Notes under the pieces: generated by a model | The model's database searches: none | Seen by the model: the letters and a program-made list of their open reading frames with translations, nothing else | Told to the model about the DNA's origin: nothing | Virus record (IMG/VR): IMGVR_UViG_3300009446_000003 | Span: 1 to 49,440 of that record | Length of the DNA: 49,440 nucleotides | Source of the DNA: a virus | Strand: one strand, 5' to 3' | Translations under genes and position numbers: made by a program | Shown here: piece by piece, positions 6,580 to 47,902 of the stretch | Layout: every line of letters starts with the position of its first letter | How positions within the stretch are numbered: position 1 is the first letter of the stretch

Positions 6580-6948
6580 TTATTGATATAATTCTAACAT
6601 TTCGTCTAAGTCTCTAATTGAGTCACTTGCATTTATAGTTGTATATCTTAATACAATCCATCCTAATTTTTGAGCAGCATTGTATTTTGAGCAGTCGCCA
6701 GTGTATCCTGTGGCTGTTGTATGTCGCGATTTTTTAGACATTAATCCTTCATACTCCCAAGCAAGCTTAATCTTAGGTATACAGTGGTCAAACATCCATT
6801 TTCTTGTGGGGTGAAATTCAAATTCATTAACATAAACAAGTGGCGATTCGTCTAACAAGTATGTATCATTAAATTCTTTTTTGTCTACCTTGTGTATCTT
6901 TAATGATACCAAGTAGTATTCCAATGCACCTAATTTCTTAAATTTCAT
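6580..6948 (-). CDS. PD-(D/E)XK (Vsr/DUF559-like) endonuclease-fold protein; the only reverse-strand gene in the early block
   Basis: Motif FDHCIP..KLAWEYEG....SRH......D.SKYNAAQKLGWIVLRYT resembles D...ExEG...H...D..K...GW.vlR of DUF559/Vsr-like nucleases. Confidence 0.45.
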   Translation of the reverse strand: MKFKKLGALEYYLVSLKIHKVDKKEFNDTYLLDESPLVYVNEFEFHPTRKWMFDHCIPKIKLAWEYEGLMSKKSRHTTATGYTGDCSKYNAAQKLGWIVLRYTTINASDSIRDLDEMLELYQ

Positions 6949-6965: not shown

Positions 6966-7583
6966 ATGGCTAAGAAAAATAATAAAAAGAAAACTATAAA
7001 GATAGCTATTAATAAAGACTTTGAAGTTCGATGGCGTGACATTAAATTCTTTCAACCTGAAAACTTTAAAATCAATGCCGATCATCTAGGCATTGCCAAT
7101 AGTATCAAAGATGTTGGTGTACATGATGTTCTTCATATTTGGATTGATGAAAATGGTGATATTTGGTCAATTGATGGTGAGCAAACTATAAAGGCATTAT
7201 TGATGCATTTTGATGAATATGATTTACCAGAGTATTTGCCAGCCGTTGAGCATAAAGCAAAAGACAAAAAAGAAGCTATTAAGGTGTTGACGAAGGTTTT
7301 TAATACAATTAGAAGCAAGGTAAATGAAACGGTTTACTTTGAATGGCTTGAAAATGAAGGTTTGAAGGCAGATAAGGCTGATAAAATGGACTTTTATTAT
7401 GATGTTGAGCCAAAGGAGCAAGGGGGACCAAAAGAGCCGTCAAACAAAGGAAATGGACCGCCATGCAATATTATAGAATTGCAGTTCACGGATGAAGATT
7501 CTATAAAAGTAAAAAAGGAGCTTAAAAATATAGGTCTAACAGCCGAAAATGTTCTTTATGCTGCTTTATTTCCAGATGAATAA
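6966..7583 (+). CDS. ParB/Srx-like N-terminal domain protein
   Basis: IKFFQPENFKI...ANSIKDVGVHDVLHIWIDENGDIWSIDGEQTIKAL matches the layout of a ParB N-terminal nuclease-like domain (i.v...g.y.iiDGhhR). Confidence 0.5.
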   Translation: MAKKNNKKKTIKIAINKDFEVRWRDIKFFQPENFKINADHLGIANSIKDVGVHDVLHIWIDENGDIWSIDGEQTIKALLMHFDEYDLPEYLPAVEHKAKDKKEAIKVLTKVFNTIRSKVNETVYFEWLENEGLKADKADKMDFYYDVEPKEQGGPKEPSNKGNGPPCNIIELQFTDEDSIKVKKELKNIGLTAENVLYAALFPDE

Positions 7584-11608: not shown

Positions 11609-12229
11609 ATGGCTAAGAATAAAGAAGAAAGACCTAAAGGCAATGGCGGTAACAGGAGAATACATGAACATCCAAATGCTAATACAAATGGACTTGATAA
11701 GAATCCGCAAAATATAAATAAAGATGGTCGTAACAGGACTTTGAAGGCGATGTTTGATAAGCTACAGGAGGAAGATTCGTGTATATGGCTAAATACCTCG
11801 TTTACAGGCACAGAAAGACAGTTTAAGGCATTTGCTAGTAAAACTAATTTTAAGCACCGTATCATAACTAAAAAGAATGATACAAAAGCCTATTTCTTAG
11901 GTGTTCAGTTATCCAAGCCTGAAGCAATGATGCTGAGACTAGATAAGATACTAATGAACGGATCAGATGCAACTGCATTGAAAGGCTTTATATTTTTATG
12001 GGAACAGCAAGTGGGGAAGGCAAGGACAACAATTCAATTAGAGAATACAGAAGATCAAACGTTTTCTTTTGATGGTCTAATGTCAATAGTGGATACTAAA
12101 CCAAAGAGCTTATCAGAAAAGAAAGTATTGTCAATTATCAAATATGTAATAGATGTATTTGAAAAACCAGACTTGCCAGTTAAGTTCAAAGATAAATTAA
12201 TTAGAAAATTAAAAAGTCTTACAAAATAA
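11609..12229 (+). CDS. Basic N-terminus protein, possibly a DNA-binding or small-terminase-like (DUF5681-like) protein
   Basis: MAKNKEERPKGNGGNRR...GLDKNPQNINKDGRNRT is loosely reminiscent of GNP.GRP motifs. Weak call from composition only. Confidence 0.3.
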   Translation: MAKNKEERPKGNGGNRRIHEHPNANTNGLDKNPQNINKDGRNRTLKAMFDKLQEEDSCIWLNTSFTGTERQFKAFASKTNFKHRIITKKNDTKAYFLGVQLSKPEAMMLRLDKILMNGSDATALKGFIFLWEQQVGKARTTIQLENTEDQTFSFDGLMSIVDTKPKSLSEKKVLSIIKYVIDVFEKPDLPVKFKDKLIRKLKSLTK

Positions 12230-12335: not shown

Positions 12336-12704
12336 TTATACAACTTTCTTGCCTTGCTCAATTTCATTTATGTAATCGCTAAATCTTTCAATCATTTCTG
12401 AATTATAAGCCAATTCGTAATCATCCAGTAAATAAGTAATTGATGCAATTAATTGTTGTTTCTGTGTCTGTGTGAATTTACTTGGTATAACGGTGGTCCA
12501 TTTTATAGGTATTTTAACCTGTTTGTTCCATGCGGTTATTAGTTCGGATTGATTTTGGTGAACAAAAGAGCATGGACATGGTGAATGTGGGCTATGTGAT
12601 ATACAATGCCAAGTTATAGTACCATCACTAGACTTTCCTTGAATATCTAACTTTATATCATCCGTACCACAAAAAGGGCAGTTTATCAAATCTAAATTTT
12701 CCAT
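12336..12704 (-). CDS. Lar-like (restriction alleviation family) zinc-ribbon N-terminal domain protein
   Basis: NCPFCGTDDIKL...WHCISHSPHSPCPC...ELITAWNKQ resembles the Lar_restr_allev pattern CPFCG...v.C..C...eAi.aWN.R. Confidence 0.5.
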   Translation of the reverse strand: MENLDLINCPFCGTDDIKLDIQGKSSDGTITWHCISHSPHSPCPCSFVHQNQSELITAWNKQVKIPIKWTTVIPSKFTQTQKQQLIASITYLLDDYELAYNSEMIERFSDYINEIEQGKKVV

Positions 12705-12708
12705 ATAT

Positions 12709-13086
12709 TTATCTTTTTACATTTAGGTTATTAAGATAGTTGTACTTAGTGGTTCCGTATATAGATTTTTCCTTGATAGGCTCAATTGAATTTTGCGTTG
12801 CTCCTATCCTTGTTTGACCTGAATTAATGATCTTTTCATTATGGTCAATTATTCTGATTAGATCAATTACCATTTCGTTAGTATAGCCTGTTATGTCCAG
12901 ATGCCATATCACAAAGTTGTTTATCTCAATGTTGATCTTCTTAATGAAAACCATCTGTTCATCTCTATGGAATGTCACATATGCGTAATCATTAGTAAAT
13001 TGCAAATGATTATCTGACTTTTTAACAAGCTCGTATTTACAGAATTTAACAAAGTGAAATATCAACACGTCAGTTATATCTTTCAT
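12709..13086 (-). CDS. Hypothetical protein (P-cassette driven)
   Basis: ATG at 13086 (MKDITDV...) chosen because the longer ORF to 13188 reads through the conserved promoter/leader cassette. Confidence 0.5.
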   Translation of the reverse strand: MKDITDVLIFHFVKFCKYELVKKSDNHLQFTNDYAYVTFHRDEQMVFIKKINIEINNFVIWHLDITGYTNEMVIDLIRIIDHNEKIINSGQTRIGATQNSIEPIKEKSIYGTTKYNYLNNLNVKR

Positions 13087-13190
13087 TATGATTGTTTTAA
13101 GTTGAATTTTACGCGGTTGATCCGCTAATGTATAACAAAGATAATTCAAACTATCCAAACAAACAAATATTTGTTTGTTTATTTTCAATA
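13087..13190 (-). promoter_or_regulatory. P cassette copy 1: 24-bp palindrome AAACAAACAAATATTTGTTTGTTT (13157-13180), TATCTTTG -7 box, GCGG..CCGC leader hairpin
   Basis: Member of the 11-copy family. The leader 3' part has diverged. Confidence 0.6.
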
Positions 13191-13210
13191 AATATTTAAT
13201 CCTATTTTAT

Positions 13211-13380
13211 TTAAAATAAATAAACAAATGTTTGTTTGTTTTAAAATTTGTTCGTATCTTGCTACAAAGTTCTGTCCACATTGAAAAATAATTTAAAATA
13301 AATAAACAAATGTTTGTTTGTTTTAAAAATAGTTCGTATCTTGCTACAAAATTCCGTCCACACTTACACCATAGGCAAAA
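13211..13380 (+). repeat. Two tandem R modules (~81-89 bp each), P-promoter paralogs facing away from the downstream P cassette
   Basis: AAATAAATAAACAAATGTTTGTTTGTTTTAAAA(T/A)T(T/A)GTTCGTATCTTGCTACAAA(G/A)TTC(T/C)GTCCACA, aligns with the P cassette through the TATCTT box. Confidence 0.7.
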
Positions 13381-13388
13381 AAATGGAT

Positions 13389-13448
13389 TATAATCAATTA
13401 AAAGCTTTACCCTCTATTATACAAGGGCAAAGCTTTTAATTGATTATA
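13389..13448 (-). terminator. Rho-independent terminator: 25-bp stem (1 mismatch) followed by a T7 run on the minus strand
   Basis: TATAATCAATTAAAAGCTTTACCCT / AGGGCAAAGCTTTTAATTGATTATA. The minus strand continues CCATTTTTTTGCC. Overlaps the stop codon of 13444..13800. Confidence 0.75.
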
Positions 13449-13800
13449 CAAGGCTAAAACCGTAGATAGTTTTGATTTCCTTGCCTTTTATTATCCTATT
13501 GAGTAACTGTCCCAAAGTGTTAGACGTTTCTTTGTGCTTCCAATCATAGAAGGATTGTAAACGCTGAAGGTGTTCAAGGGTAACCCCTTTTATTGCTTGA
13601 TCCCAATATCTATTGGCTAACATATCATCATCACTAACCCTTTGATTTTTCTCAAATCTAAGGCTGTATGTATATCTGATACTTAATTGCAATAACTCGT
13701 AAGACTTCTGAAAATCTTCTTTTCTTTCTGTTGCATACTTTGCAATTTCTAATTTAATTTCTTCTGTAAATTCTGGAAATTCTGGAAATTCTGAAAACAT
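13444..13800 (-). CDS. Hypothetical protein (P-cassette driven)
   Basis: 118-aa ORF starting directly after the conserved leader ...CTTTATACAG-ATG. Confidence 0.55.
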   Translation of the reverse strand: MFSEFPEFPEFTEEIKLEIAKYATERKEDFQKSYELLQLSIRYTYSLRFEKNQRVSDDDMLANRYWDQAIKGVTLEHLQRLQSFYDWKHKETSNTLGQLLNRIIKGKEIKTIYGFSLV

Positions 13801-13897
13801 CTGTATAAAGTTTTTAAAGGTTGTGCGGTTGATCCGCTAATGTATAACAAAGATAATTCAAATTATTTAAACAAACAAATATTTGTTTGTTTATTTT
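13801..13897 (-). promoter_or_regulatory. P cassette copy 2 (palindrome 13869-13892)
   Basis: Near-identical promoter/operator/leader sequence. Confidence 0.65.
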
Positions 13898-13901
13898 AAA
13901 A

Positions 13902-14102
13902 TTATCTTTGGATAGTATCAATACCAATATAGTTTGGGTTTTTCTCCAAAATCTTATCCCTAAACAAATTTATATATTTAGTATATTCATCTTTTGAAAA
14001 ATTGCTTATTACATAAAGATGGTATTTTGTTTTAGTCTTTTGTGTCTTTGCGTTACTTGCCTTTGTTGCTAACTGACTAATTGACATTTGATCTATTTTC
14101 AT
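13902..14102 (-). CDS. Hypothetical small protein
   Basis: 66-aa ORF, second gene of a two-gene unit. Confidence 0.45.
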   Translation of the reverse strand: MKIDQMSISQLATKASNAKTQKTKTKYHLYVISNFSKDEYTKYINLFRDKILEKNPNYIGIDTIQR

Positions 14103-14112
14103 TTATCCGATT

Positions 14113-14325
14113 TTAAAGGCTTATTAAAATTATTTCACTTGCTGTATATTGACAACCATCTATAGAATACAATAGTACTGAGTCGGTGTCTATGCTATCA
14201 ATATTAGACACTTTCAAGGGTATTTCCTCACCTATGTCATGTTTTCCATTTATAGACCTTACGCCTACTGTTTGACCTATTTCCAAATCTTTATCATGTG
14301 TTAATTTCCAAATAAAGGCATCCAT
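14113..14325 (-). CDS. Hypothetical small protein (P-cassette driven)
   Basis: 70-aa ORF starting directly after ...TTTATATCAAT-ATG. Confidence 0.5.
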   Translation of the reverse strand: MDAFIWKLTHDKDLEIGQTVGVRSINGKHDIGEEIPLKVSNIDSIDTDSVLLYSIDGCQYTASEIILISL

Positions 14326-14430
14326 ATTGATATAAAGGTTTAAAATGTTGTGCGACTAATCGCTAATGTATATCAAAGATAATTCAAATAAACCAAATAA
14401 ACAAATGTTTGTTTGTTTATTTGGTTTATT
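14326..14430 (-). promoter_or_regulatory. P cassette copy 3 (variant operator AAACCAAATAAACAAA-N6-TTTGTTTATTTGGTTT; GCGA..TCGC hairpin variant)
   Basis: 16-bp arms at 14390-14405 and 14412-14427. Confidence 0.6.
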
Positions 14431-14437
14431 TGGTTAA

Positions 14438-15169
14438 TTAATTAATTGATATTCTAGACTTGTTATAGCTTCCAGAAATTCCAGAATTTAAGTTAACATT
14501 ATTTCCAATATCAGAGCCTTTTTTGTAAGCATTTCTATTTGTGTTAATTCGGGCAGACGGTCCGTTTTTGGTTCTTACTCCTGTTTTTTTCAAGAATAAC
14601 TTATAATCTGATTCAACTATTTTCATTTTGTTAGTTTCTACTAGTCCATATTCTACAGAGCTATAATTGTCTTTATTCAACAATGACAGCCTATCATATA
14701 TCGACATACTAAAACCTTTGCAAAAGTCAGTACATTTACTTTTGCCATGCCTTGAATCATTTTTATATACTGCTGTTTTCTTGAATTTTGTTAATTCTGA
14801 AAACATAGTGTTATAAATAAAATTGTAAAAGTATTCAAACAATAAAATGTCTTTCTTTGATCCAAATATCACATATTCATTTTCTGTATTTATATAACCA
14901 CAACAGTTATATAGTAGGCGCAATTGAGGCACAAAGAAATTAGTCTTATATTTGAATTTATCAAATATCTTTACTTTTTTAAATTGGTTTTTGTCCCTAT
15001 CTTGTTTTTTCAAATCTGATTGACTTATATTGTATTTGTTCATCATTTTTTTAGCCTTAGATATGGCTGTCAATGTCTCGTTTTCGCTTGCACCTGAATC
15101 ATTAGACATTCTAATCAGAGAATTAATTGTATTCGTTATAGATTCTTTTTTTTCGTCTGAAATTTTCAT
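14438..15169 (-). CDS. DUF2786-like N-terminal domain protein
   Basis: TINSLIRMSNDSGASENETLTAISKAKKMMNKYNI resembles the DUF2786 pattern (i.kLL.la......EA..Al.kA..Lm.ky.i). Confidence 0.5.
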   Translation of the reverse strand: MKISDEKKESITNTINSLIRMSNDSGASENETLTAISKAKKMMNKYNISQSDLKKQDRDKNQFKKVKIFDKFKYKTNFFVPQLRLLYNCCGYINTENEYVIFGSKKDILLFEYFYNFIYNTMFSELTKFKKTAVYKNDSRHGKSKCTDFCKGFSMSIYDRLSLLNKDNYSSVEYGLVETNKMKIVESDYKLFLKKTGVRTKNGPSARINTNRNAYKKGSDIGNNVNLNSGISGSYNKSRISIN

Positions 15170-15265
15170 ATTAATATAAGTTTTAAAGGTTATGCGGTTG
15201 CTCCGCTAATGCATAACAAAGATAATTCAAATTATTTAAACAAACAAATATTTGTTTGTTTATTT
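15170..15265 (-). promoter_or_regulatory. P cassette copy 4 (palindrome 15238-15261)
   Basis: Near-identical promoter/operator/leader sequence. Confidence 0.65.
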
Positions 15266-15284
15266 TGCAAATAAAATTCATTGA

Positions 15285-15380
15285 AAAATAATTTAAAATA
15301 AATAAACAAATGTTTGTTTATTTTAAAATTTGTTCGTATCTTGCTACAAAATTCCGTCCACACTTAAACCACAGGCAAAA
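15285..15380 (+). repeat. R module (one full copy plus the junction remnant of a second)
   Basis: About 90% identical to 13292-13380; part of the left copy of the inverted repeat paired with 18176-18320. Confidence 0.7.
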
Positions 15381-15386
15381 TTTTTA

Positions 15387-15419
15387 ATATCCAGTAGTAC
15401 AATTTGCACTACTGGATAT
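15387..15419 (-). terminator. Hairpin terminator ATATCCAGTAGT-N9-ACTACTGGATAT
   Basis: 12-bp perfect stem directly after the stop of 15426..15845. The same hairpin occurs inverted at 18180-18212. Confidence 0.65.
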
Positions 15420-15425
15420 ATATTA

Positions 15426-15845
15426 TTAATCTTCAGATTTTGACGCTGTTAATATTTCGGTTTTTATTTCCATTTGCTTAAACGCTTCTTTTATATTTAT
15501 TCCGTTATTCTGAAAATCACCACCTGTACAGTCAAAAACAACCGTCATGCCTTCTTTTTTTGGCTGTTCTCCATATAGTCCAGTAAGATCATGCCAACCT
15601 TTGCATACAAAGGCTTTTTTGTATTTGGCGCGGTACTTCTTTCGTTTCCCTTTGCCTTTATATATTAAATACAATTCGCTTTTAAATCCATTAGATTTTA
15701 ATCTTTCTCGTCCATGTTCAAATAGCCATATGTGAGTACGACTTACAATCTCCATAGAATTTTGAACTACTAATGTAGCTTTTATTTTTTTTGGTAAAAC
15801 TATCTTGTATGTTGAGGGTATAAAGTAATCTGTTACGGCATTCAT
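15426..15845 (-). CDS. Hypothetical protein (P-cassette driven)
   Basis: 139-aa ORF starting directly after ...TTTATATCAAT-ATG. Confidence 0.55.
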   Translation of the reverse strand: MNAVTDYFIPSTYKIVLPKKIKATLVVQNSMEIVSRTHIWLFEHGRERLKSNGFKSELYLIYKGKGKRKKYRAKYKKAFVCKGWHDLTGLYGEQPKKEGMTVVFDCTGGDFQNNGINIKEAFKQMEIKTEILTASKSED

Positions 15846-15940
15846 ATTGATATAAAGTTTTAAAGGTTGTGCGACTAATCGCTAATGTATATCAAAGATA
15901 ATATAAATTTTATAAACAAACAAATATTTGTTTGTTTGTT
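15846..15940 (-). promoter_or_regulatory. P cassette copy 5 (palindrome 15914-15937; GCGA..TCGC hairpin variant)
   Basis: Near-identical promoter/operator/leader sequence. Confidence 0.65.
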
Positions 15941-15950
15941 TAAAAATAAA

Positions 15951-15984
15951 ATAGGGTAGCGATTTTTTAAAAAAGCTACCCTAT
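15951..15984 (-). terminator. Hairpin terminator ATAGGGTAGC-N14-GCTACCCTAT
   Basis: 10-bp perfect stem after the stop of 15989..16318, followed by TTTATTTTTA on the minus strand. Confidence 0.6.
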
Positions 15985-15988
15985 TACA

Positions 15989-16318
15989 TTATACAACAAC
16001 CTTTAAATTATCATATTTTTTTTGTTTGGCTATTGAATGCGGAACAGTTCGCCATGTAAACTCTAATTCTTCGCACATTTCAATCAAGGCTTTAAATGAT
16101 GTGGCTCGTATTTTCTGCCATTTAGTTTTATGTATTTCGTAAACAGTTGTTTTTATCCCTGTTTTCCTAATACATTCCTGAAAAAAAAGACTGGATTTTT
16201 CGTTTGATTTTGTTTCATTCAAACACTTTCCATTTGAATCACAAACAAAATATTTTTTAGATTCCGCGTTATGTTCGCGTGTATATCCTGCTAGATTTGA
16301 AAGTTTTAAATTTCTCAT
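15989..16318 (-). CDS. Hypothetical protein
   Basis: 109-aa ORF downstream of 16389..17072 with no P cassette of its own. Confidence 0.5.
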   Translation of the reverse strand: MRNLKLSNLAGYTREHNAESKKYFVCDSNGKCLNETKSNEKSSLFFQECIRKTGIKTTVYEIHKTKWQKIRATSFKALIEMCEELEFTWRTVPHSIAKQKKYDNLKVVV

Positions 16319-16348
16319 TAATTTTTAAGATTTTAAGATTTTAAGATT

Positions 16349-16375
16349 GACCATTCAGAAAAAATCTGAATGGTC
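16349..16375. other. Intercistronic hairpin GACCATTCAGA-N5-TCTGAATGGTC next to three TAAGATTT repeats (16326-16349)
   Basis: 11-bp perfect stem. The T-run lies on the plus strand only, so it may stop antisense transcription or attenuate the operon. Confidence 0.4.
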
Positions 16376-16388
16376 ATTTTTTTTTAAT

Positions 16389-17072
16389 TTACCCCCATAA
16401 TTTAATAGCGGTTTCTAAATCTTTTGTAAGATTGTTAACCTTCTTTTTTGCGTAAGTTAATGAATAACTATGCTCCCTTGCAAGTGTGCCGTCTTTATAT
16501 CCCTCATGAATTTCTTTTGCATCTTCTAATTGATATTCGTAAAACTCTATACAAGCAGGCATGGAAAGGTTCATGTCGTTTACTTTACTTTCCCAATATT
16601 GCGCACGACTTTTGTAAGCTTCTGACTTTCTTGATTCTGCCACCATTTTATCCATGCGGTTCCAGTTCCTTTTTATCAAAGCCCTGTGCTTTTTTTCCGA
16701 GTGGTGACCAACTAGGATTGGCTGACCAAATGGAATAATGTCATGCCCTTCTTTTGATGCTTCCCATGCTTCTGTGCTTCTTTTACTTGCATTTTCAGAA
16801 TATCCGTTTAACTTTTCGGCTTTTTTCTTTGCGTATTCCTGTGAGTTAAAACCGTCCTGTCTAACAATCGAATAATAAAAAGAATCACTATCCGTGTAAA
16901 TTAAATTAAAAACTATGCATTCATGCTCTTTGCCGTATCTAGTTGTTAATGTGATAATGTCACCTTTGACATGTTCGCTGTGACACTTAGCTAAAAAAAC
17001 ATTTGGACAATATTTTTTATAAGTATTTTTCAATTCTGTACTTTCCGTACTTGTGTTTTTTAATGGATTCAT
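16389..17072 (-). CDS. DUF3560-like protein
   Basis: ...EKLNGYSENASKRS...FGQPILVGHHSEKKHRALIKR... matches the GQPILVGHHSE(R/K)(R/K)HR core that I associate with DUF3560 proteins of plasmids and ICEs. Confidence 0.65.
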   Translation of the reverse strand: MNPLKNTSTESTELKNTYKKYCPNVFLAKCHSEHVKGDIITLTTRYGKEHECIVFNLIYTDSDSFYYSIVRQDGFNSQEYAKKKAEKLNGYSENASKRSTEAWEASKEGHDIIPFGQPILVGHHSEKKHRALIKRNWNRMDKMVAESRKSEAYKSRAQYWESKVNDMNLSMPACIEFYEYQLEDAKEIHEGYKDGTLAREHSYSLTYAKKKVNNLTKDLETAIKLWG

Positions 17073-17170
17073 ATTAAAAATTAAGTTTTAAAGGTTACGC
17101 GGTTGATCCGCTAATGTATAACAAAGATAATCTAAATTTTATAAACAAACAAATATTTGTTTGTTTATTT
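17073..17170 (-). promoter_or_regulatory. P cassette copy 6 (palindrome 17143-17166)
   Basis: Near-identical promoter/operator/leader sequence. Confidence 0.65.
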
Positions 17171-17174
17171 TTAT

Positions 17175-17831
17175 TTATTCATAGATGGATTGGCATGGCA
17201 ATGCTTCAAATTCTGCTTTGTTTGGACTCAAAACATATCTTTTTTTGTTTAGGCAATACTCCAAACCTAAATTTAATAAATACGCTGTATCTTCAAAGAA
17301 AACATTTCTACTATATGCATTTGTACAAAAATTAACAAAATCATCTTTTTGGTATTTGTTGTATGTTCGCATCATTTCCACATTATCAGGATAGAAGTTA
17401 TTAAACTCGTTAATGTAATCATATGTGTTTGAAATGTATTCTTTTAGCTCCTTAGAAAATTCTTTTAGAGTTGATTTGCATGGCAATGCATCAAAATCAC
17501 ATTGCCATATTTCCAATAAATAACGCTCGTTAATATCACAAAAATTTATATTTGAATCAATTAGATTTGCAATATTTTTAAAATCAATATTTCTTATATA
17601 TGCTTTTGTGCAAAAATCAACAAAGTCATCTTTTTGAATACCTACTAAAATACTAGCTCGACAATCATAATTATCTATGTAATCATAAACGTCTTTTATG
17701 TATTGATCTAAAGCATTATCATAAGTAAAATTACCCTCTGTATGTATTGTTACGCTTCTTTGTGTGTCACTTGTAATGTTAAGCGTGTATTGAGTCAAAC
17801 CTATTTGATTTGTATTTGATATTAAAGTCAT
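17175..17831 (-). CDS. Hypothetical protein with an internal two-fold repeat (DDFV(D/N)FCT(K/N)AY...FEALPC(K/Q)S)
   Basis: 218-aa ORF starting directly after ...CTTATATCAAT-ATG. Two ~95-aa homologous halves are visible. Confidence 0.55.
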   Translation of the reverse strand: MTLISNTNQIGLTQYTLNITSDTQRSVTIHTEGNFTYDNALDQYIKDVYDYIDNYDCRASILVGIQKDDFVDFCTKAYIRNIDFKNIANLIDSNINFCDINERYLLEIWQCDFDALPCKSTLKEFSKELKEYISNTYDYINEFNNFYPDNVEMMRTYNKYQKDDFVNFCTNAYSRNVFFEDTAYLLNLGLEYCLNKKRYVLSPNKAEFEALPCQSIYE

Positions 17832-17951
17832 ATTGATATAAGGTTTTAAAGGTTACGCGGTTGATCCGCTAATGTATAACAAAGATAATCTAGATTATCT
17901 TTGTTATACATTAGCGATTAGTCGCACAACATTTTAAACCTTTATATCAAT
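17832..17951. promoter_or_regulatory. P cassettes 7 and 8 fused back-to-back (divergent), containing a 50-bp perfect palindrome 17867-17916 and no AAAC operator
   Basis: Left leader (GCGG..CCGC variant) drives 17831<-; right leader (GCGA..TCGC variant) drives ->17952. The two TATCTTTG boxes are 8 bp apart. Confidence 0.65.
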
Positions 17952-18173
17952 ATGGATTTATCACAACAAATACAGGAACTAGAAAAAAATTGGGACAATG
18001 AAAATTGCAAAAAACTATACAGAGATTTAACCGACTTTTCAATAATTCCAAATGTAGAATTGAAAAAATTGAAATTAGTTTTTAATAGAAATCAATTTAT
18101 AAATAGTTACGGATTGGAGCAAATACAAAGAAAGTACAGTACTGAAGTTTTTAATAAAGTGTATCCAGTATAG
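17952..18173 (+). CDS. Hypothetical small protein (P-cassette driven)
   Basis: 73-aa ORF directly after ...TTTATATCAAT-ATG. Confidence 0.5.
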   Translation: MDLSQQIQELEKNWDNENCKKLYRDLTDFSIIPNVELKKLKLVFNRNQFINSYGLEQIQRKYSTEVFNKVYPV

Positions 18174-18179
18174 TAATAT

Positions 18180-18212
18180 ATATCCAGTAGTGCAATTTGT
18201 ACTACTGGATAT
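18180..18212 (+). terminator. Hairpin terminator ATATCCAGTAGT-N9-ACTACTGGATAT
   Basis: 12-bp perfect stem 7 nt after the stop codon; inverted copy of 15387-15419. Confidence 0.65.
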
Positions 18213-18215
18213 TAA

Positions 18216-18385
18216 AAATTTTGCCTATGGTGTAAGTGTTGACAGAATTTTGTAGCAAGATACGGACTATTTTTAAGATAAACAAACATTTGTTTATTTA
18301 TTTTAAATTATTTTTCAATGTGGACGGAATTTTGTAGCAAGATACGAACAAATTTTAAAACAAACAAACATTTGTTTATTTATTT
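18216..18385 (-). repeat. Two tandem R modules (inverted relative to 13211-13380)
   Basis: Cores at 18236-18277 and 18318-18360: (G/A)TGT(T/G)GAC(A/G)GAATTTTGTAGCAAGATACG(G/A)AC... Confidence 0.7.
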
Positions 18386-18414
18386 TAAAGGAAACTTGAA
18401 TTAAATATTTTTTG

Positions 18415-18513
18415 CAAAACAAACAAACAAATATTTGTTTGTTTGTAAAATTTGAATTATCTTTGATATACATTAGCGATTAGTCGCACAACCTTTAAAA
18501 AATTTATATCAAT
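18415..18513 (+). promoter_or_regulatory. P cassette copy 9: palindrome 18421-18444, TTTG(18434-18437)-N20-TATCTTTG(18458-18465), GCGA..TCGC leader hairpin
   Basis: Exact Bacteroidota -33/-7 geometry, with the -33 box inside the right palindrome arm. Confidence 0.7.
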
Positions 18514-18885
18514 ATGGTAGGTAGTGAATATGTTAAGAGAAATGATAAATCTATAACTTGCAAAGTTTTAGATACAATTAAAATTGGATTCGATGACGGA
18601 TTTAAATGTAAGATAAAAGATATTGAATACAAAACCGAAAAGATACAGAATCATCTAAAACGCGATTTTAACGATGTTTGGCAGCCTTTAATTTTCGTAA
18701 AGATACCATGCACTTGTATTGGATACGCCAACGAATACAGTATCTTTTTAAATGAATCAATTATAAAAATATACCAAAAAGGATTAACGGAAATTGCATA
18801 TAAATTATATTGTACCGACCCCATGCAAAAAGAAACAATATTAACGATTGAAGATTTTATTAAAACAATGAGATTGTTTAAGTAA
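18514..18885 (+). CDS. Hypothetical protein (P-cassette driven)
   Basis: 123-aa ORF directly after ...TTTATATCAAT-ATG. Confidence 0.55.
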   Translation: MVGSEYVKRNDKSITCKVLDTIKIGFDDGFKCKIKDIEYKTEKIQNHLKRDFNDVWQPLIFVKIPCTCIGYANEYSIFLNESIIKIYQKGLTEIAYKLYCTDPMQKETILTIEDFIKTMRLFK

Positions 18886-18888
18886 AGC

Positions 18889-18937
18889 AAACTACCAATA
18901 TCTGTAATAAAAAATTCAGTTATTGGTAGTTTTTTTT
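18889..18937 (+). terminator. Rho-independent terminator (AAACTACCAATA...TATTGGTAGTTT followed by a T-run)
   Basis: 12-bp outer stem plus a 3-bp inner stem; T-run through 18937. Confidence 0.8.
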
Positions 18938-18939
18938 AT

Positions 18940-19095
18940 ATTTGCAATGTGGACAGAACTTTGTAGCAAGATACGAACTATTTTTAAAATAAACAAACAA
19001 ATAAACATTTATTTTAAATTATTTTTCAATGTGGACGGAATTTTGTAGCAAGATACGAACTATTTTTAATATAAACAAACAAATAAACATTTATT
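18940..19095 (-). repeat. Two tandem R modules upstream of 19116..19676
   Basis: Cores at 18947-18990 and 19029-19070: ATGTGGAC(A/G)GAA(C/T)TTTGTAGCAAGATACGAACTATTTTTAA. Confidence 0.7.
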
Positions 19096-19115
19096 TTTGA
19101 AATTAATCAAAACTT

Positions 19116-19676
19116 ATGAGTAACAAAAAATCAAATCTAAAGTCTTTAAAAAGGCTTGGGCTTATTAGACTATTCAAAAATACTAATTGGAAGCATAACG
19201 GCAAAGGGACCGCGTGTTATAAAGGATTTGGATACGGTCAGTACGAGCTAAAAGATAGGGCTAAGATAATGGGAATACCAGAAATTGATTTAGTTACAAA
19301 AAATCACTATGAGCAATGGGAAGGTGTAGAGGTCAAAATGATAAAGGGCGCATTTCATACATCTATAGAAATATCTAAAGAATTGATTGATGATAATAGC
19401 TATAACCCACCAAGTAAAATTTTAAGAATAAAAAACCCTTCAAATAATCCGTTTATTGCATCGGTTTGTTTTCCAGATTTGGAATTGATATTCACAAATA
19501 TTGTTACACAAAATCAAGTTAGTAAAGATTTGATATTTTCGCAACTAGACATAACAACAGGTAAATTTGATCCATATGTCAAGTTTAATCCTAGAGTGTT
19601 TTTGTATATTGACTATGTTAGTGATGTCGCTAAAAACGATCTTTTTTCAAATAAAAAACGATACAATTTAAAATAA
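19116..19676 (+). CDS. Hypothetical protein
   Basis: 186-aa ORF, last gene of the accessory island. Confidence 0.55.
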   Translation: MSNKKSNLKSLKRLGLIRLFKNTNWKHNGKGTACYKGFGYGQYELKDRAKIMGIPEIDLVTKNHYEQWEGVEVKMIKGAFHTSIEISKELIDDNSYNPPSKILRIKNPSNNPFIASVCFPDLELIFTNIVTQNQVSKDLIFSQLDITTGKFDPYVKFNPRVFLYIDYVSDVAKNDLFSNKKRYNLK

Positions 19677-32317: not shown

Positions 32318-32417
32318 AAATAGAGGTATTTTTTAGATGTTTGTTTATTTACATAGTTTATATTTGTATTGACAGAATAAATAAACAAATATTTAAACAA
32401 ACAAATATCTAAAAATT

Positions 32418-33059
32418 ATGGCAGGTGGAATTTATACAGGCTTAACTCAGCCTTCGGCTTTTAGCTTTGACTTAAAGCCAAAAAAAATTAAATATGCTGC
32501 TCTAAATAGTAGCATATGTACGCTTAGATTGCTTTTTTTAGAGAGCAATGTTTGTGGGATTTCTTTACCTAGTACTATAAGTGCATACACAAAAGAAGGT
32601 TTTGATTTAGTTACAAACTTGCCTGACCCTAATACCAATATAGTTCCAATTGACAGAGATAAATACTACTGTCTTAATGTAATAAATTCAAGCTTACCGA
32701 GAACTATAGAGTCACCATCATCTGCTTCAGATGAAAAGTATGAAGAAGGAGAGTCGCCAGCAAAATACACACTTGAAGGTGAATTTATTGATTATGAAAA
32801 CTACATGGAGTTTAGAAAGCTTGGTGATGGTTCTCATTGTGTAGCTGTTGTTGCAGAAACCAAAGGTTGTTGCATGGTTTATTCACAAGTAAATGCGGAT
32901 GGTACTGTATCGCCATTAATCGGAAGTATAAAAATAGGTTGGGATGGATTGCCTTATGGTGGTACTAAAACGGTTCCATTTATAATTGATTGGACATCTA
33001 AAGTGAAGCCTTCTGTTACTCGCTCGGTGTTTTGTGATGATGATTGCTATGTAAATTAA
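32418..33059 (+). CDS. Hypothetical structural protein
   Basis: 213-aa ORF preceded by AAATAAACAAATATTTAAACAAACAAATATCTAAAAATT. Confidence 0.5.
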   Translation: MAGGIYTGLTQPSAFSFDLKPKKIKYAALNSSICTLRLLFLESNVCGISLPSTISAYTKEGFDLVTNLPDPNTNIVPIDRDKYYCLNVINSSLPRTIESPSSASDEKYEEGESPAKYTLEGEFIDYENYMEFRKLGDGSHCVAVVAETKGCCMVYSQVNADGTVSPLIGSIKIGWDGLPYGGTKTVPFIIDWTSKVKPSVTRSVFCDDDCYVN

Positions 33060-33101: not shown

Positions 33102-33734
33102 ATGATACACAAGTTAATTGACAAGAGCAATAAACGCCATACGGCAACTACGATTGCTAAAAGAGACGCATTAGTTAAGGGTGGAATGCGTATTGTTCCA
33201 GATACACCAAAAGAATTGAAAATAAACATTTTTGCTGAAGATGGTTTTTTGGATTTGTGCGAAAAATCCAAAATAGACCCTTCTGATATTAAGCCAACAG
33301 GTGATGGTGGTAAATTTTTACTTGAAGATGTTGAAACTCATATTCTAAAAATGTATAAAGAATATGAGAAAGTTAAAGCGGATAAGCTAAAGGCTAAGAA
33401 GAAAAAGGCTAAGAAGAAAGTTAAAGCGGATAAGACCAAAGGAACTGCTAAAGCGGATAAGACCAAAGGAACTGCTAAGACGGCTACTAAGACGACAGCT
33501 ACCAAAGGAACTGCTAAGACGGCTACTAAGACGACAGCTACCAAAGGAACTGCTAAAGCGGATAAGACCAAAGGAACTGCTAAGACGGCTACCAAGACGG
33601 CAGCTACCAAGACGGCAGCTACCAAGACGGCTACCAAGACGGCAGCTACCAAAGGAACAGCTACCAAAGGAACAGCTACCAAAGGAACAGCTACCAAAGG
33701 AACAGCTACCAAAGGAAGTGCAGAAACAGAGTAA
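33102..33734 (+). CDS. Protein with a PSBD/HeH-like motif and a C-terminal histone-H1-like K/T/A repeat tail
   Basis: IDPSDIKPTGDGGKFLLEDVETHI resembles the peripheral-subunit-binding/HeH pattern (l..v.GtGpgGrI.keDv). The C-terminal 110 aa is KADKTKGTAKTATKTTATKGTA repeats. Confidence 0.5.
   Translation: MIHKLIDKSNKRHTATTIAKRDALVKGGMRIVPDTPKELKINIFAEDGFLDLCEKSKIDPSDIKPTGDGGKFLLEDVETHILKMYKEYEKVKADKLKAKKKKAKKKVKADKTKGTAKADKTKGTAKTATKTTATKGTAKTATKTTATKGTAKADKTKGTAKTATKTAATKTAATKTATKTAATKGTATKGTATKGTATKGTATKGSAETE
33385..33715 (+). repeat. K/T/A coding repeat (third locus of this repeat family)
   Basis: GCTACCAAAGGAAC(A/T)GCT and AAGACGGC(A/T)(G/A)CTACC units, shared with 338-728 and 1966-2190. 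Confidence 0.8.
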
Positions 33735-38035: not shown

Positions 38036-40684
38036 ATGAAGTATTTATTTAAATTATTACTATTTGTTTGTGCATTCAATTCTATGAATGCACAAACTTT
38101 TTTGGTAAATGAATGGTATAGTATAGATTGCGCAAAAGGGTATGAGACAAATATATTATATTTTTGTCTATGTGAAGATGTAGAAGAAATGTATATTGAT
38201 TCTGTAAAAGTTGAACCTGTTCAAAGTGTTGTGAATTGGGCGTACTTAGCTAACTTGCCTGAAGTTGATTTTAGTTTTAATGGAATTACTCAAACTGGAC
38301 ATGTTATAACTTACAAGGCACTTGATTGTATTTATAGGGTAGGATTTGTAATTGATGATAATTGTGCGCCATTATGTTATGATTGTCCAAAAGGTGAATC
38401 TTGTAGTTGTGAGTGTGATAATATCATTCCTTGCAATACTGATTGCAGTACTGGAAACCTTGAAGTTTTTGACAATGAAATTTGTGAATGTGTTTTATAT
38501 CAAATTTCAAGTAATGGATGCACTGATATAACTGCTTGTAATTATGACCCATTTTCTAACTGTGATGATGGTTCTTGTATCTATGAATCAAATTTTCAAT
38601 GTAATACCGATTGCAGTACTGGAAACCTTGAAGTTTTCTCTAATGAGCAATGTGATTGTATATTGTTAGAAGTCTCTGTATTTGGCTGCAATGACGCTAC
38701 TGCTTGTAATTATGATCCATTGGCTAATTGTGACGATGCTTCTTGTAATTTTGGCAATACTGCTTGTCCAGACCCTTGCAATGTCTTATTTGGCTGCAAT
38801 GACGCTGCTGCTTGCAATTATGATCCATCTGCTAATTGTGACGATGGTTCTTGCAATTTTGGCAATACTGCTTGTCCAGACCCTTGCAATGTCTTATTTG
38901 GCTGCAATGACGCTGATGCTTGTAATTATGATCCATTGGCTAATTGTGACGATGGTTCTTGTAATTTTGGCAATACTGCTTGTCCAGACCCTTGCAATGT
39001 CTTATTTGGCTGCAATGACGCTGCTGCTTGCAATTATGATCCATTGGCTAATTGTGACGATGGTTCTTGCAATTTTGGCAATACTGCTTGTTCGGACCCT
39101 TGCAATGTCTTATTTGGCTGCAATGACGCTGCTGCTTGTAATTATGATCCATCTGCTAATTGTGACGATGGTTCTTGCAATTTTGGCAATACTGCTTGTC
39201 CAGACCCTTGTAATGTCTTACTTGGCTGCAATGACGCTGCTGCTTGTAATTATGATCCATCTGCTAATTGTGACGATGGTTCTTGCAATTTTGGCGATGG
39301 CTGCAATGACGCTGCTGCTTGCAATTATGATCCATCTGCTAATTGTGATGATGGTTCTTGTGTTTATTGTCCAATCGGGGGAATTTGTGAAAATGGTGAT
39401 TGTTTTTGCCCAGATTGCAATACTGATATTTTAGTTAATGGCATAAGTACATGTGTCAATGTATGTGGTAGCACTTCTGACTCATTGAATTGTCCAGATT
39501 TTTGTGAATCTTTTACATGTCCAGATGGCAGTTTAGTAGTTGATTGCTTTGAGTGCTATTGTGTTGATCTTGAATTGTTTGTTGATTTTTCTACCTCAAT
39601 GTCTTTTGAGGGAATTACTGGACAGACATTGATGGCTGAAACACTTCAGGGTGTTGGTCAATTGATACAAAATTTAGGAATAAATTATCCTAATAAATTT
39701 TCATTAACGGTTTACTCTTATTCTAGTCAAGAGCATGCAGGTATTCTACTTGAATGCGTAATTGTTAATGAAAATAATAAGGATGAACTTTCTGATTTTT
39801 TCGTTACTGAAATATGTAATGATATTACTGCATACATACCAAATTGCGGTGTAAATAGCTCGTGTACCTGCGGAAATACATATCCATTTTATGCTTTGCA
39901 ATTAGCAGAGCCTTACGAGGGTTGTGTTAATTGTACAGATGAAAGTACAATACCAATGTTATTGATCATGACAGATGGTTCGTTTAACGAAAGTTCTTCC
40001 ATGATTAATACTGTAGAAAATTGGTTTAATAATTTGCCAGTCGCTCAACAAATAAATGCACAAACAGTAGGTATACAATTTGCTAGTGATGAAGAATGTG
40101 ATGTAAGTGACGGAATGAAGGCATTTGGAAGTTATTACGGCGGACCTAGTGTTTATTGTGGAAATGATATTAATGATCTTTTTTCTAATGCAATAGAGCT
40201 GTTGTGTAATAATAAATGTGTTCAATATCAAGATTTACTTGTTTGTAACCCTTGTGATGATGGAGAGCTTTTTTTAAATGGTATATGTAGTGAAAATAAA
40301 AGATTAAAAAATGGTAATTGCAGTCATTATTTTAGTGGATATGAAACTTCTACTGAGTATTGTGTAAATGAATTTATAAATATTGAATGTTCAAATTATA
40401 GTATTGATGAAATTTGTTATTCAAAATGTAGTTGTGAGGATTCGTTTAAAATTCCATTTTCTAATACAAGAAGCGATGGCTTTTTAGAAGTGTCAGTTTG
40501 CGCTCCAATATGTGATATTGGTAAATATTGGAATTTTGTCACAAATAATTGTGAATTTATTTGTGAAGAGGGTTATATGATTTACGTAAATGGAGAATGC
40601 AAGCAATTTATTGATTGTAATGATGAAAATTGTATTAATATTGTAAATGATTCTATTAATAAAAAATGTTACTGTAATGATTAG
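38036..40684 (+). CDS. Secreted, extremely Cys-rich protein with tandem CNYD...CDDGSC modules and a vWA-like domain (MIDAS DFSTS)
   Basis: Signal peptide MKYLFKLLLFVCAFNSMNA|Q. At least 8 copies of GC(N/T)DxxACNYDPxxNCDDGSC, six of them as 36-aa exact-period repeats. FVDFSTSMS matches DxSxS. About 105 Cys by rough eye count. Confidence 0.7.
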   Translation: MKYLFKLLLFVCAFNSMNAQTFLVNEWYSIDCAKGYETNILYFCLCEDVEEMYIDSVKVEPVQSVVNWAYLANLPEVDFSFNGITQTGHVITYKALDCIYRVGFVIDDNCAPLCYDCPKGESCSCECDNIIPCNTDCSTGNLEVFDNEICECVLYQISSNGCTDITACNYDPFSNCDDGSCIYESNFQCNTDCSTGNLEVFSNEQCDCILLEVSVFGCNDATACNYDPLANCDDASCNFGNTACPDPCNVLFGCNDAAACNYDPSANCDDGSCNFGNTACPDPCNVLFGCNDADACNYDPLANCDDGSCNFGNTACPDPCNVLFGCNDAAACNYDPLANCDDGSCNFGNTACSDPCNVLFGCNDAAACNYDPSANCDDGSCNFGNTACPDPCNVLLGCNDAAACNYDPSANCDDGSCNFGDGCNDAAACNYDPSANCDDGSCVYCPIGGICENGDCFCPDCNTDILVNGISTCVNVCGSTSDSLNCPDFCESFTCPDGSLVVDCFECYCVDLELFVDFSTSMSFEGITGQTLMAETLQGVGQLIQNLGINYPNKFSLTVYSYSSQEHAGILLECVIVNENNKDELSDFFVTEICNDITAYIPNCGVNSSCTCGNTYPFYALQLAEPYEGCVNCTDESTIPMLLIMTDGSFNESSSMINTVENWFNNLPVAQQINAQTVGIQFASDEECDVSDGMKAFGSYYGGPSVYCGNDINDLFSNAIELLCNNKCVQYQDLLVCNPCDDGELFLNGICSENKRLKNGNCSHYFSGYETSTEYCVNEFINIECSNYSIDEICYSKCSCEDSFKIPFSNTRSDGFLEVSVCAPICDIGKYWNFVTNNCEFICEEGYMIYVNGECKQFIDCNDENCINIVNDSINKKCYCND
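38681..39365 (+). repeat. 108-bp in-frame tandem repeat, about 6.3 copies
   Basis: TTTGGCTGCAATGACGCT... recurs at 38681, 38789, 38897, 39005, 39113 and 39221, with a truncated unit at ~39294. Confidence 0.9.
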
Positions 40685-44285: not shown

Positions 44286-44604
44286 TATTTACAAAGGTTT
44301 TGAGACTGCATTAACAATGTATGTAAATTATCCTTTTTTGGTAATAATGACATGTATAGGTATAGCAGTTACTATTTCGGGAATAAATAAATTTAAATTT
44401 GGTAGTATTAGAGTTATTAAATTTTGGTGGGTTGTTTTCTTTTCTGTTTTAGCATCTATTCCTATATGTGAAATGGAATGGTTTGGTGCAACTGGTGAAC
44501 AGCTTGCATTTACTATTATGGTTGGTTCAGCATCATTTGAAGGATTGTCTTTTCCAATAATGAAATTTTTGAAAATAGAAAAAAGATTTAGCTATGAAAA
44601 ATAA
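44278..44604 (+). CDS. Holin-like / membrane protein (3 TM helices)
   Basis: 108 aa; 8-nt overlap with the upstream gene; three hydrophobic helices. Confidence 0.45.
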   Translation: MLDIYKGFETALTMYVNYPFLVIMTCIGIAVTISGINKFKFGSIRVIKFWWVVFFSVLASIPICEMEWFGATGEQLAFTIMVGSASFEGLSFPIMKFLKIEKRFSYEK

Positions 44605-46867: not shown

Positions 46868-46880
46868 ATTTCCAAATTGT

Positions 46881-46979
46881 AAAATAAACAAACAAATATT
46901 TGTTTGTTTGCAAAATTTAGATTATCTTTGTTATACATTAGCGGAACAACCGCATAACCTTTAAAAACTTTATATCAAT
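46881..46979 (+). promoter_or_regulatory. P cassette copy 10: 24-bp AAAC palindrome, TTTG(46899-46902)-N20-TATCTTTG(46923-46930), leader hairpin GCGG-AACAA-CCGC (46941-46953)
   Basis: Exact -33/-7 geometry; ATG at 46980. Confidence 0.7.
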
Positions 46980-47393
46980 ATGGAAAGTAAGCAGAATGAA
47001 ATACAAAATTTAAGAATTGAACACTTTGAGTCGGTAATAAGTGATACGCATTTGCAAATAGATACAAACATGAGAATTGCTAAGTCTTTAGAATCTAGTG
47101 AATTAGTTGATTTGGAAACTTGGAAATTGGACTGTTTTAAATATAAGATTAAGTGCCTATATGATGTTCGGTCATATGTTTGTTTAGGAGAAAAAGGCGT
47201 TTTTAGTGATTATAGAGATTTGTGTATCCGTTTGATATGTGACGATCTACAAGGTTATGAAATTCAGGTAATCAGAGATGTTTTGGGATTGATTAGAAAG
47301 GTTCATCGTATTATTGGTAAAAATAATAATGGATTAATATATAGTAAAATATCTGATAAAAAAGTACACTTAATATTGCACTTAAATTCTTAA
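46980..47393 (+). CDS. Hypothetical protein (P-cassette driven)
   Basis: 137-aa ORF directly after ...TTTATATCAAT-ATG. Confidence 0.55.
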   Translation: MESKQNEIQNLRIEHFESVISDTHLQIDTNMRIAKSLESSELVDLETWKLDCFKYKIKCLYDVRSYVCLGEKGVFSDYRDLCIRLICDDLQGYEIQVIRDVLGLIRKVHRIIGKNNNGLIYSKISDKKVHLILHLNS

Positions 47394-47399
47394 ATTTAT

Positions 47400-47497
47400 C
47401 AAAAACACAAACAAACAAATATTTGTTTGTTTGTAAAATTTAGATTATCTTTGTTGTACATCAGCGATTAGTCGCACAAAATTTTAAACCTTATATA
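47400..47497 (+). promoter_or_regulatory. P cassette copy 11: palindrome 47408-47431, TTTG(47421-47424)-N20-TATCTTTG(47445-47452), hairpin GCGA-TTAG-TCGC (47463-47474); drives the rep operon
   Basis: Same family; followed by 47498..47902 and rep. Confidence 0.7.
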
Positions 47498-47902
47498 ATG
47501 AAAAAAAATATTTTTATACAAAAAGTAATTTCAAGAATTAAAAGGCTATCTTTCTTTATTGACTATGATACCGATTCTGGAATACTTTTTCATGCAATGA
47601 TGTATTTTGGATTTGGAATTGAAGGACCAACAAATTTTAGATTTGTTAGAGATAGGTTTACTGATATTACAATAAGACTTGAGGTTAAGGAGAAAAAAAG
47701 AAAGATACAATCTTGTAAACTGGTAATTGAAAGTAACACGCTCTCAATTAAATCTTTAAATGGTTATTATAGGATTTTGAATAATTATCAAAAAAAATTT
47801 GATGGTAAAAAGTTTAATTATCATTTAGTCAAGCCAAGTTCACTTTTCAATCGCATGGAAATTTCCGATATTCGGGAATGGAAAATAAATAAACAAACAT
47901 AA
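47498..47902 (+). CDS. Hypothetical protein, translationally adjacent to rep (TAA then ATG)
   Basis: 134-aa ORF, first gene of the rep operon. Confidence 0.5.
   Translation: MKKNIFIQKVISRIKRLSFFIDYDTDSGILFHAMMYFGFGIEGPTNFRFVRDRFTDITIRLEVKEKKRKIQSCKLVIESNTLSIKSLNGYYRILNNYQKKFDGKKFNYHLVKPSSLFNRMEISDIREWKINKQT

Follow-up and report, generated by a model that had tools for sequence, protein, structure and literature searches.

A candidate early-gene island built of repeated promoter and stem-loop cassettes in a probable Bacteroidota phage

The circular viral assembly IMGVR_UViG_3300009446_000003 from IMG/VR was analyzed over its whole length of 49,440 nucleotides (nt), referred to here as the window. 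It represents a phage genome of about 49.3 kb with a G+C content of about 30%, and its first and last 123 nt are identical (terminal overlap; 1-145 versus the 49325-49440 region). The host is probably a member of the Bacteroidota, Flavobacteriia-like. The region between positions 12336 and 19676, immediately upstream of the large terminase gene terL and named here the island, includes 13 open reading frames (ORFs), of which the minus strand carries ten and the plus strand three; they form two arms diverging at about position 17890. An earlier note, made from the sequence without database searches, had described about 13 small genes on two divergent arms, and these ORFs were found where it had placed them. 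The only other minus-strand coding sequence in the genome is located at 6580-6948, and the coding density is 75% in the island as compared with about 92% elsewhere. The ORF listed as 12709-13188 starts at a TTG codon that lies within the cassette upstream of the gene; the true start is the ATG at 13086, which generates a product of 125 amino acids (aa). Long repeats are shared between the two arms, one of 176 nt at 95% identity and another of 150 nt at 93% identity.

Nine of the 13 genes are preceded by their own copy of a cassette of about 100 nt, named type A, that consists of a 24-bp AT palindrome, a sigma-A-type promoter (TTTG-N20-TATCTTTG) and a conserved 49-nt leader. In gene orientation the perfect palindrome AAACAAACAAATATTTGTTTGTTT is followed by a 13-nt spacer, the box TATCTTTG, and a leader that starts with TTATACATTAGCG, includes a four-pair mini-hairpin (GCGR-N4/5-YCGC) and ends in ...AACCTTTAAAACTTTATATCAATATG (...TATATCAATATG). 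Two alleles of the mini-hairpin were found, GCGG-N5-CCGC in six copies and GCGA-N4-TCGC in five. The motif TTATCTTTGTTATACATTAGCG, searched with up to three mismatches, is present in 11 copies in the window, nine of them within the island, when none is expected, and the distance from the box to the ATG is constant at 45-50 nt. The palindrome occurs 13 times, also with an expectation of zero; its predicted fold has a free energy of -9.6 kcal/mol (z-score -3.7) and its right half provides the TTTG located 20 nt upstream of the box. The box agrees with TAnnTTTG, which in flavobacteria is the -7 box for sigma-A (PMC9723704). The full consensus TTTG-N17-23-TAnnTTTG is found 17 times in the genome as compared with 6.7 expected, and nine of these 17 are type A copies. 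Two type A cassettes lie outside the island, and the second of the genes that they precede, 47498-47902, continues directly into a Rep3-type replication initiator gene at 47903-49234 (Rep3_N, 2.9e-24; Rep3_C, 2.2e-12). Because the type A promoters carry the full host sigma-A consensus and belong to a class that the island has in common with the Rep3 replication-initiation unit, the island genes are likely to be expressed early, by the unmodified host polymerase.

Outside the type A family, the only other gene-proximal promoters with the full sigma-A consensus were located at 165-195, upstream of 252-953, and at 32359-32366, upstream of 32418-33059, and the long structural operon that starts at 19820 has -7-only boxes at most. 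On the plus strand at 13882-13910 the palindrome of the type A cassette with its box at 13855 is followed by another TATCTTTG, which overlaps the stop codon of 13902-14102 and completes a full-consensus promoter facing antisense into this gene.

The cassettes, together with hairpins, define ten units, nine of which are led by type A; the remaining one, that of 19116-19676, has no type A cassette. The other three genes that lack a cassette of their own, the Lar-like gene, 13902-14102 and 15989-16318, are the second genes of two-gene units. Six strong terminator hairpins (-17.8 to -33.1 kcal/mol, z-scores -4.8 to -9.3) each close one of six units, and a terminator scan detected nine terminator-like sites as compared with 2.3 expected. 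The earlier note's remark that most genes have their own promoter is borne out and indeed falls short of the organization observed; the word "strong", as applied to the promoters, and the "early takeover" are deductions from the sequence. Within the DUF3560 unit, a seventh hairpin (16348-16376; -18.9 kcal/mol) separates the DUF3560 gene from 15989-16318. Its U-run (T9) is on the plus strand only, antisense to both flanking genes, and it would be expected to terminate inward antisense transcripts and not the sense unit.

A second repeated element, named type B, is an 82-nt unit present in seven copies at four sites, three of which hold tandem pairs. All seven copies are directed inward to position 17890, antisense to the island genes. 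When read in that direction each has the palindrome and the 13-nt spacer in register with type A, followed by the box TATCTTGC. Over the promoter half, up to the box, type B is 68% identical to type A, and beyond the box 26%. By sequence comparison, type B can be considered paralogous to this half of type A. The box fits TAnnTTGY, a variant reported for a minor promoter class in Flavobacterium psychrophilum (PMC9723704). The promoter-proximal copies each face the terminator hairpin of the converging gene (13385-13440, 15387-15419, 18180-18212 and 18889-18937), and the U-runs of these hairpins, where present, are on the gene-sense strand; therefore type B transcripts, if made, would probably continue antisense into the genes. 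We regard type B as putative antisense or insulating promoters with moderate confidence.

An alternative is that the type B units are not inward promoters at all but gene-sense elements, such as middle promoters with a GAATTTTG box, protein-binding sites or small RNA genes, or else decayed type A relics left by inversions between the arms. The inter-arm inverted repeats could have produced such units, which in gene orientation hold GAA[T/C]TTTG, a match to TAnnTTTG at seven of eight positions, and 19116-19676 is preceded by type B units only. Nevertheless, in that orientation there is no TTTG 17-23 nt upstream of GAA[T/C]TTTG, while in the opposite reading direction TATCTT, the palindrome and its 13-nt spacer line up exactly with type A. 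The "leader" specific to type B is 91% conserved among the copies, which speaks against simple decay, and no type B unit matched Rfam, where sub-threshold hairpin matches were the only ones. We consider this alternative unlikely, though not negligible. Mimicry of a CRISPR repeat, that is, an RNA anti-CRISPR function of type B, was rejected: with exact matching only, the 19-nt core had three single chance matches in 185,579 species genomes, and none was in an array.

Table 1. Positions of the genes, cassettes and promoter boxes of the island and of the type A cassettes outside it.
Feature	Position	Strand	Remarks
Lar-like zinc-ribbon protein	12336..12704	-	122 aa; second of a two-gene unit, 4 nt after 12709-13086
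Orphan, 125 aa	12709..13086	-	Leads the Lar-like unit; type A cassette ends at the ATG; no family match
Orphan, 118 aa	13444..13800	-	Own type A cassette; terminator hairpin 13385-13440, -33 kcal/mol
Two-gene unit	13902..14325	-	14113-14325 (70 aa), then 13902-14102 (66 aa); 10-nt gap; one type A cassette
DUF2786 + DUF7168 protein	14438..15169	-	243 aa; own type A cassette
phrog_24737 protein, 139 aa	15426..15845	-	Own type A cassette; terminator hairpin 15387-15419
Orphan, 109 aa	15989..16318	-	Follows the DUF3560 gene; lacks a separate cassette; terminator hairpin 15950-15985
DUF3560 protein	16389..17072	-	227 aa; own type A cassette
Orphan, 218 aa	17175..17831	-	Innermost of the minus arm; internal duplication of ~95 aa (direct repeats 285 nt apart); no family match
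Divergence point	17832..17951		Two back-to-back type A promoters; -7 boxes 17880-17887 (-) and 17896-17903 (+)
Orphan, 73 aa	17952..18173	+	Type A cassette; terminator hairpin 18180-18212
Orphan, 123 aa	18514..18885	+	Type A cassette; terminator hairpin 18889-18937, then T8
186-aa protein	19116..19676	+	Directly upstream of terL; no type A cassette; TATTTTTG box 17 nt before the ATG
Type A cassette, example copy	13097..13184	-	
Type A -7 box starts	13143, 13855, 14381, 15224, 15900, 17129, 17887	-	
Type A -7 box starts	17896, 18458, 46923, 47446	+	
Two type A cassettes outside the island	46869..47500	+	Ahead of 46980-47393 and 47498-47902
Type B tandem pair, example	13209..13362	+	82-nt period
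Type B TATCTTGC box starts	13255, 13337, 15337	+	
Type B TATCTTGC box starts	18262, 18344, 18973, 19055	-	

Three of the island products had been proposed to be Lar-like, DUF2786-like and DUF3560-like, and profile searches confirmed all three resemblances and pointed to no unrelated families, with the Lar match remaining below threshold. The product of 16389-17072 is a DUF3560 protein (PF12083; E=1.2e-35, 122.7 bits with the cut-off at 27.2, covering 1-118 of the 124 profile positions) and also matches PHROG 17519 (E=1e-87). It belongs to a form of 213-227 aa with more than 4000 homologues that are about 60% identical over their full length (57-64%), and the family is present on about 4,000 plasmids in PLSDB. 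An AlphaFold (AF2) model with a predicted local distance difference test score (pLDDT) of 83 consists of a small N-terminal beta-barrel and four long helices, and an invariant loop, P118-I-x-x-G-H-H-S-E, is found between the first two helices. The association of DUF3560 with conjugative elements and anti-restriction genes, also claimed in the earlier note, is borne out by the leading region of an IncF plasmid, where a longer form of DUF3560 is flanked by an antirestriction gene, a DNA methylase gene and DUF1380 on one side and by ssb/psiB on the other (PMC6965323, PMC11781037). In phages, DUF3560 is found in an early operon of a Porphyromonas phage beside SbcC-like, RecT-like, Apyc1-like and methyltransferase genes, at the head of the Bet/Exo/SSB operon of Pasteurella phage Pm86, and in the early regions of Flavobacteriia prophages. 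An early or leading position close to single-stranded DNA (ssDNA), recombination and DNA-protection genes is thus a recurring theme of this family.

The product of 14438-15169 includes DUF2786 (PF10979; 30.0 bits against a cut-off of 23.9, residues 12-50) followed by DUF7168 (PF23771; 34.5 bits against 25.5, residues 87-164), which is the N-to-C order of the family, and it matches PHROG 421 from end to end (E=4e-30, residues 5-237). It is a member of a full-length family of about 240 aa with 755 representatives at E≤1e-3 and identities of 22-36%. As the earlier note had advised, AlphaFold models of the two DUF proteins were compared with known structures. That of the DUF2786/DUF7168 protein is also confident (pLDDT 86; predicted template modelling score 0.75), and the comparison gave no fold match: Foldseek at E≤1e-3 found nothing for the DUF3560 model in the PDB and BFVD, nor for the DUF2786/DUF7168 model in the PDB. 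A literature search on DUF3560, DUF2786 and DUF7168 found no functional study.

The product of 12336-12704 was recovered with E-values of about 1e-4 in three libraries, below the curated cut-offs: Pfam Lar_restr_allev (PF14354; E=1.3e-4, 22.5 bits against 28.6), PHROG 599 "Lar-like" (E=1.1e-4) and NCBIfam TIGR03655 (21.6 bits against 39.6). For comparison, the E. coli RalR protein scores 53.5 bits. The zinc-ribbon signature is present and aligns with that of RalR (C9-P-F-C12-G, the C34 knuckle and E54..W59-N-K61). The match to RalR is confined to these zinc-ribbon motifs. As in Lar/RalR of the E. coli Rac prophage, a small early prophage or phage gene codes for a protein that combines CPFCG, as its N-terminal knuckle, with a second knuckle and, near the C-terminus, E..WNK; unlike RalR, which has CxxC at the second knuckle, the island protein has CxxH, and it carries a C-terminal extension of about 60 residues. 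Judged by its sequence it is a divergent Lar-type zinc ribbon with this extension, and not a member of the family by score.

The remaining ten proteins had been called orphans. This holds for nine of them, for which Pfam, PHROGs and NCBIfam returned no match and PADLOC no meaningful one; the tenth, 15426-15845, matches a PHROG of unknown function (phrog_24737, 1.4e-6). No known defence or anti-defence family was matched by any of the ten. A PADLOC "cyclase" match of 18514-18885 (16.9 bits) was judged to be due to chance. Sequence and profile searches of the PDB with seven of the island proteins detected nothing.

The closest known system is that of the PeSL (promoter-early stem-loop) cassettes of T4-type phages, in which a repeated early promoter and stem-loop located before ORFans in hyperplastic regions acts as promoter, attenuator and recombination point (Arbiol et al. 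2010, PMC2839356; Comeau et al. 2014, PMC4122927). The island has the same composite organization, a repeated host-consensus early promoter and a stem-loop directly before ORFans in a region of low coding density, and by analogy it can be described as a PeSL-like hyperplastic early region. Other common characteristics are the AT-rich upstream region, a stem-loop able to overlap the upstream promoter element, a position immediately ahead of small ORFans, the concentration in a region of low density, variable in T4-type phages and putatively so here, while a few copies accompany replication genes, and the attenuator and recombination-point roles that have been proposed for both. On the other hand, the island promoter is of the Bacteroidota type (TTTG / TAnnTTTG) whereas that of PeSL is a sigma-70 promoter, the stem-loop is an AT palindrome instead of a G/C-rich stem, and a conserved 49-nt leader is found in place of a Shine-Dalgarno sequence. 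The carrier also differs, a genome of about 49 kb with plasmid-like Rep3/iteron replication as opposed to a T4-like myovirus; the antisense-facing paralogous type B has no described counterpart among PeSL; and recombination between cassettes is only proposed for the island, the genomes available for comparison being nearly identical. Integron-like cassettes were considered and rejected: every unit is under a separate promoter, an attC-type GTTRRRY core is lacking, and the ORFs scanned included no integrase.

We consider it moderately probable that the region is a hyperplastic early-gene island of a Bacteroidota phage, built of repeated promoter/stem-loop cassettes, with a cargo that most likely serves establishment or counter-defence. 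Upon DNA entry, the unmodified host RNA polymerase would fire all eleven type A promoters at once, and the island proteins would be made alongside the replication initiator, when the entering DNA is most vulnerable to the defences of the host. The AT palindrome over the -33 element could double as an attenuator of the upstream unit and perhaps also as an operator for later shut-off. Type B cassettes would be active in the inward direction, opposing four units at their 3' ends, and through antisense RNA or transcriptional interference could insulate the units or silence them later. The near-identical direct and inverted cassettes would be substrates for homologous recombination by which gene units are added, deleted, swapped or inverted. 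Establishment or counter-defence is proposed as the most likely role of the cargo because a Lar-type zinc ribbon and a DUF3560 protein, the latter recurrent by ssDNA, recombination and anti-restriction genes, are found together under a promoter of the early class. Counter-defence in itself is plausible by analogy, from one sub-threshold motif and guilt by association.

The proposal of an anti-defence or early-takeover locus, as the earlier note had it, therefore keeps its timing, which is likely from the promoter class, while none of the proteins reaches a curated anti-defence threshold. A strong form of that proposal would be a dedicated anti-defence island, in which most of the 13 genes code for inhibitors of immunity (anti-restriction, anti-CRISPR, anti-abortive infection) made immediately on entry. 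The Lar-type zinc ribbon, the occurrence of DUF3560 beside anti-restriction, methyltransferase and Apyc1-like genes in plasmids and phages, and the small orphans under a consensus host promoter that is common to the replication operon are all compatible with it, and early or leading regions are known sites of clustered anti-defence genes (PMC11541004). However, only one protein out of 13 resembles a characterised anti-defence protein, and it does so under every curated cut-off; the founding Lar/RalR has also been described as a DNase toxin (PMC4041452); and searches of Pfam and PHROGs for Ard, Ocr, Acr and Tad families had no match in the island. We regard such a dedicated function as rather unlikely. 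The phage island can also be compared with the anti-defence islands of plasmid leading regions (Samuel et al. 2024, PMC11541004). Both have clustered small genes with repeated dedicated promoters, early expression being deduced in the case of the phage island, and the DUF3560 family is common to the IncF leading region and the phage. The plasmid islands, in contrast, have ssDNA (Frpo) promoters, oriT/umuCD bounds and recognisable ArdA/KlcA/Acr/PsiB/SSB/methyltransferase genes, with none of these in the phage island, and where most annotated genes of an anti-defence island are devoted to anti-defence or DNA protection, a single sub-threshold Lar-like match was obtained among the 13 proteins here. 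The parallel is one of timing and of one family in common, not of membership.

A doubtful alternative, which we rate slightly higher than a dedicated anti-defence island, is an accessory region without a specific link to immunity, dedicated to host takeover, DNA metabolism or regulation (inhibitors of host transcription or division, recombination helpers, superinfection exclusion). Small early orphan genes of well-studied phages are often host-takeover factors, DUF3560 recurs by Bet/Exo/SSB, RecT/SbcC and ssb/psiB and not only by anti-restriction genes, and the fold searches point to no immune target. This evidence is equally circumstantial, and counter-defence is somewhat better matched by the Lar-like motif and by the association with leading regions. 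A more far-reaching proposal is that the island is a self-regulating, shufflable gene-cassette array, a type of organization not described for Bacteroidota phages: outward type A promoters would express interchangeable early genes, inward type B promoters (TAnnTTGY-type box) would provide programmed antisense shut-off or insulation, and DUF3560 and DUF2786/DUF7168, both widespread, could be new establishment or counter-defence classes common to phages and plasmid leading regions. Taken as a whole we consider this improbable.

Several findings weigh against the hyperplastic early-gene island with an establishment or counter-defence cargo that we favor. No island protein reaches the curated threshold of any characterised anti-defence family, and the two confident DUF models have no structural analogue. 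The designation "early" derives from promoter class alone. The leader mini-hairpin is weak, no more stable than shuffled sequences (z-scores -0.7 and -1.3), and the one compensated pair that backs it is probably a single event; the high identity of the cassettes could reflect recent duplication rather than selection. With respect to type B, the box has a G where sigma-A expects a T, which makes its activity uncertain, and the hairpins that face the type B copies have no U-runs on the type B strand. Finally, no diverged relative with the cassette was found in IMG/VR, the JGI metagenomes or the 185,579 species genomes, and three other assemblies of the same phage are 99.9-100% identical across the island.

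For Bacteroidota phages, the signals of transcription and the dynamics of accessory genes have been little charted, and eleven aligned copies of one early promoter and leader make the promoter, the leader and the palindrome directly testable. The common families DUF3560 and DUF2786/DUF7168 are placed by the analysis in a defined, putative early regulon together with a Lar-like gene, which makes them candidates for establishment or counter-defence functions, and the island is a reasonable place to seek candidate counter-defence genes. If the type B antisense promoters are active, they would be a new and simple mechanism by which early phage genes are timed or insulated.

The membership of 19116-19676 in the island is doubtful because it has no island promoter and is located directly upstream of terL, at a site where relatives of this terL carry the small terminase gene terS. 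Its TATTTTTG box resembles the one before terL, and the gene may code for a small terminase or belong otherwise to the packaging module. At the other end of the island, 11609-12229 codes for a 206-aa protein with a basic N-terminus (GNGGNRR...NPQNINKDGRNR) and ends at a hairpin that it shares with the opposing Lar-like gene; if this were the small terminase, the island would be inserted between terS and terL. Neither 19116-19676 nor 11609-12229 showed similarity to terS of the terL relatives or to any GenBank phage. In unrelated phages whose terL is 42-54% identical (L038, 7101-7706; L035, 4386-9616), Tad3 (anti-Thoeris), an EcoRV-like endonuclease and several methyltransferases are found just upstream of terS/terL; there, too, defence-related cargo occupies the place ahead of the packaging genes.

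The homologues of terL at 42-54% identity belong to phages that do not have the island. The terminases of Cellulophaga, Flavobacterium and Pelagibacter phages are 22-35% identical to terL, and IMG/VR has five matches, on short contigs and at 30% identity. A near-match search with the island sequence retrieved no GenBank phage, and the genome has no near relative among them. The type A cassette pattern had no match in IMG/VR and 20 isolated matches in JGI metagenomes, all in unrelated coding sequence. Short-read assemblies of the same phage are interrupted exactly at the cassettes. The phage is present in sample SRR5754723 as well as in JGI and ENA samples.

The replication module has plasmid-like characteristics: the assembly is circular, six or more 22-nt iterons (TTTAAACGGGTAAAGAGGGATG) adjoin the Rep3-type initiator, and 6966-7583 codes for a weak ParB-like protein. 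Because of this module and the lack of an integrase among the ORFs scanned, the element may be a phage-plasmid. No tRNA genes were found in the window.

Other repeats are located in coding sequences away from the island. K/A/T-rich 27-nt coding repeats with a KTATKKDEA-like motif and a histone-H1/HC2-like match are located at 336-734, 1972-2193 and 33422-33721, in three different ORFs; one set lies in the C-terminal tail of the ERF recombinase encoded at 980-2572. Two tandem repeats are in frame, one of 108 nt present 5.7 times at 38679-39295, Cys-rich and inside ORF 38036-40684, and one of 69 nt present four times at 44865-45139, inside the tail-fibre-like ORF 44594-45673. The copy numbers of both the 108-nt and the 69-nt repeats vary between assemblies of this phage (JGI, ENA and the window).

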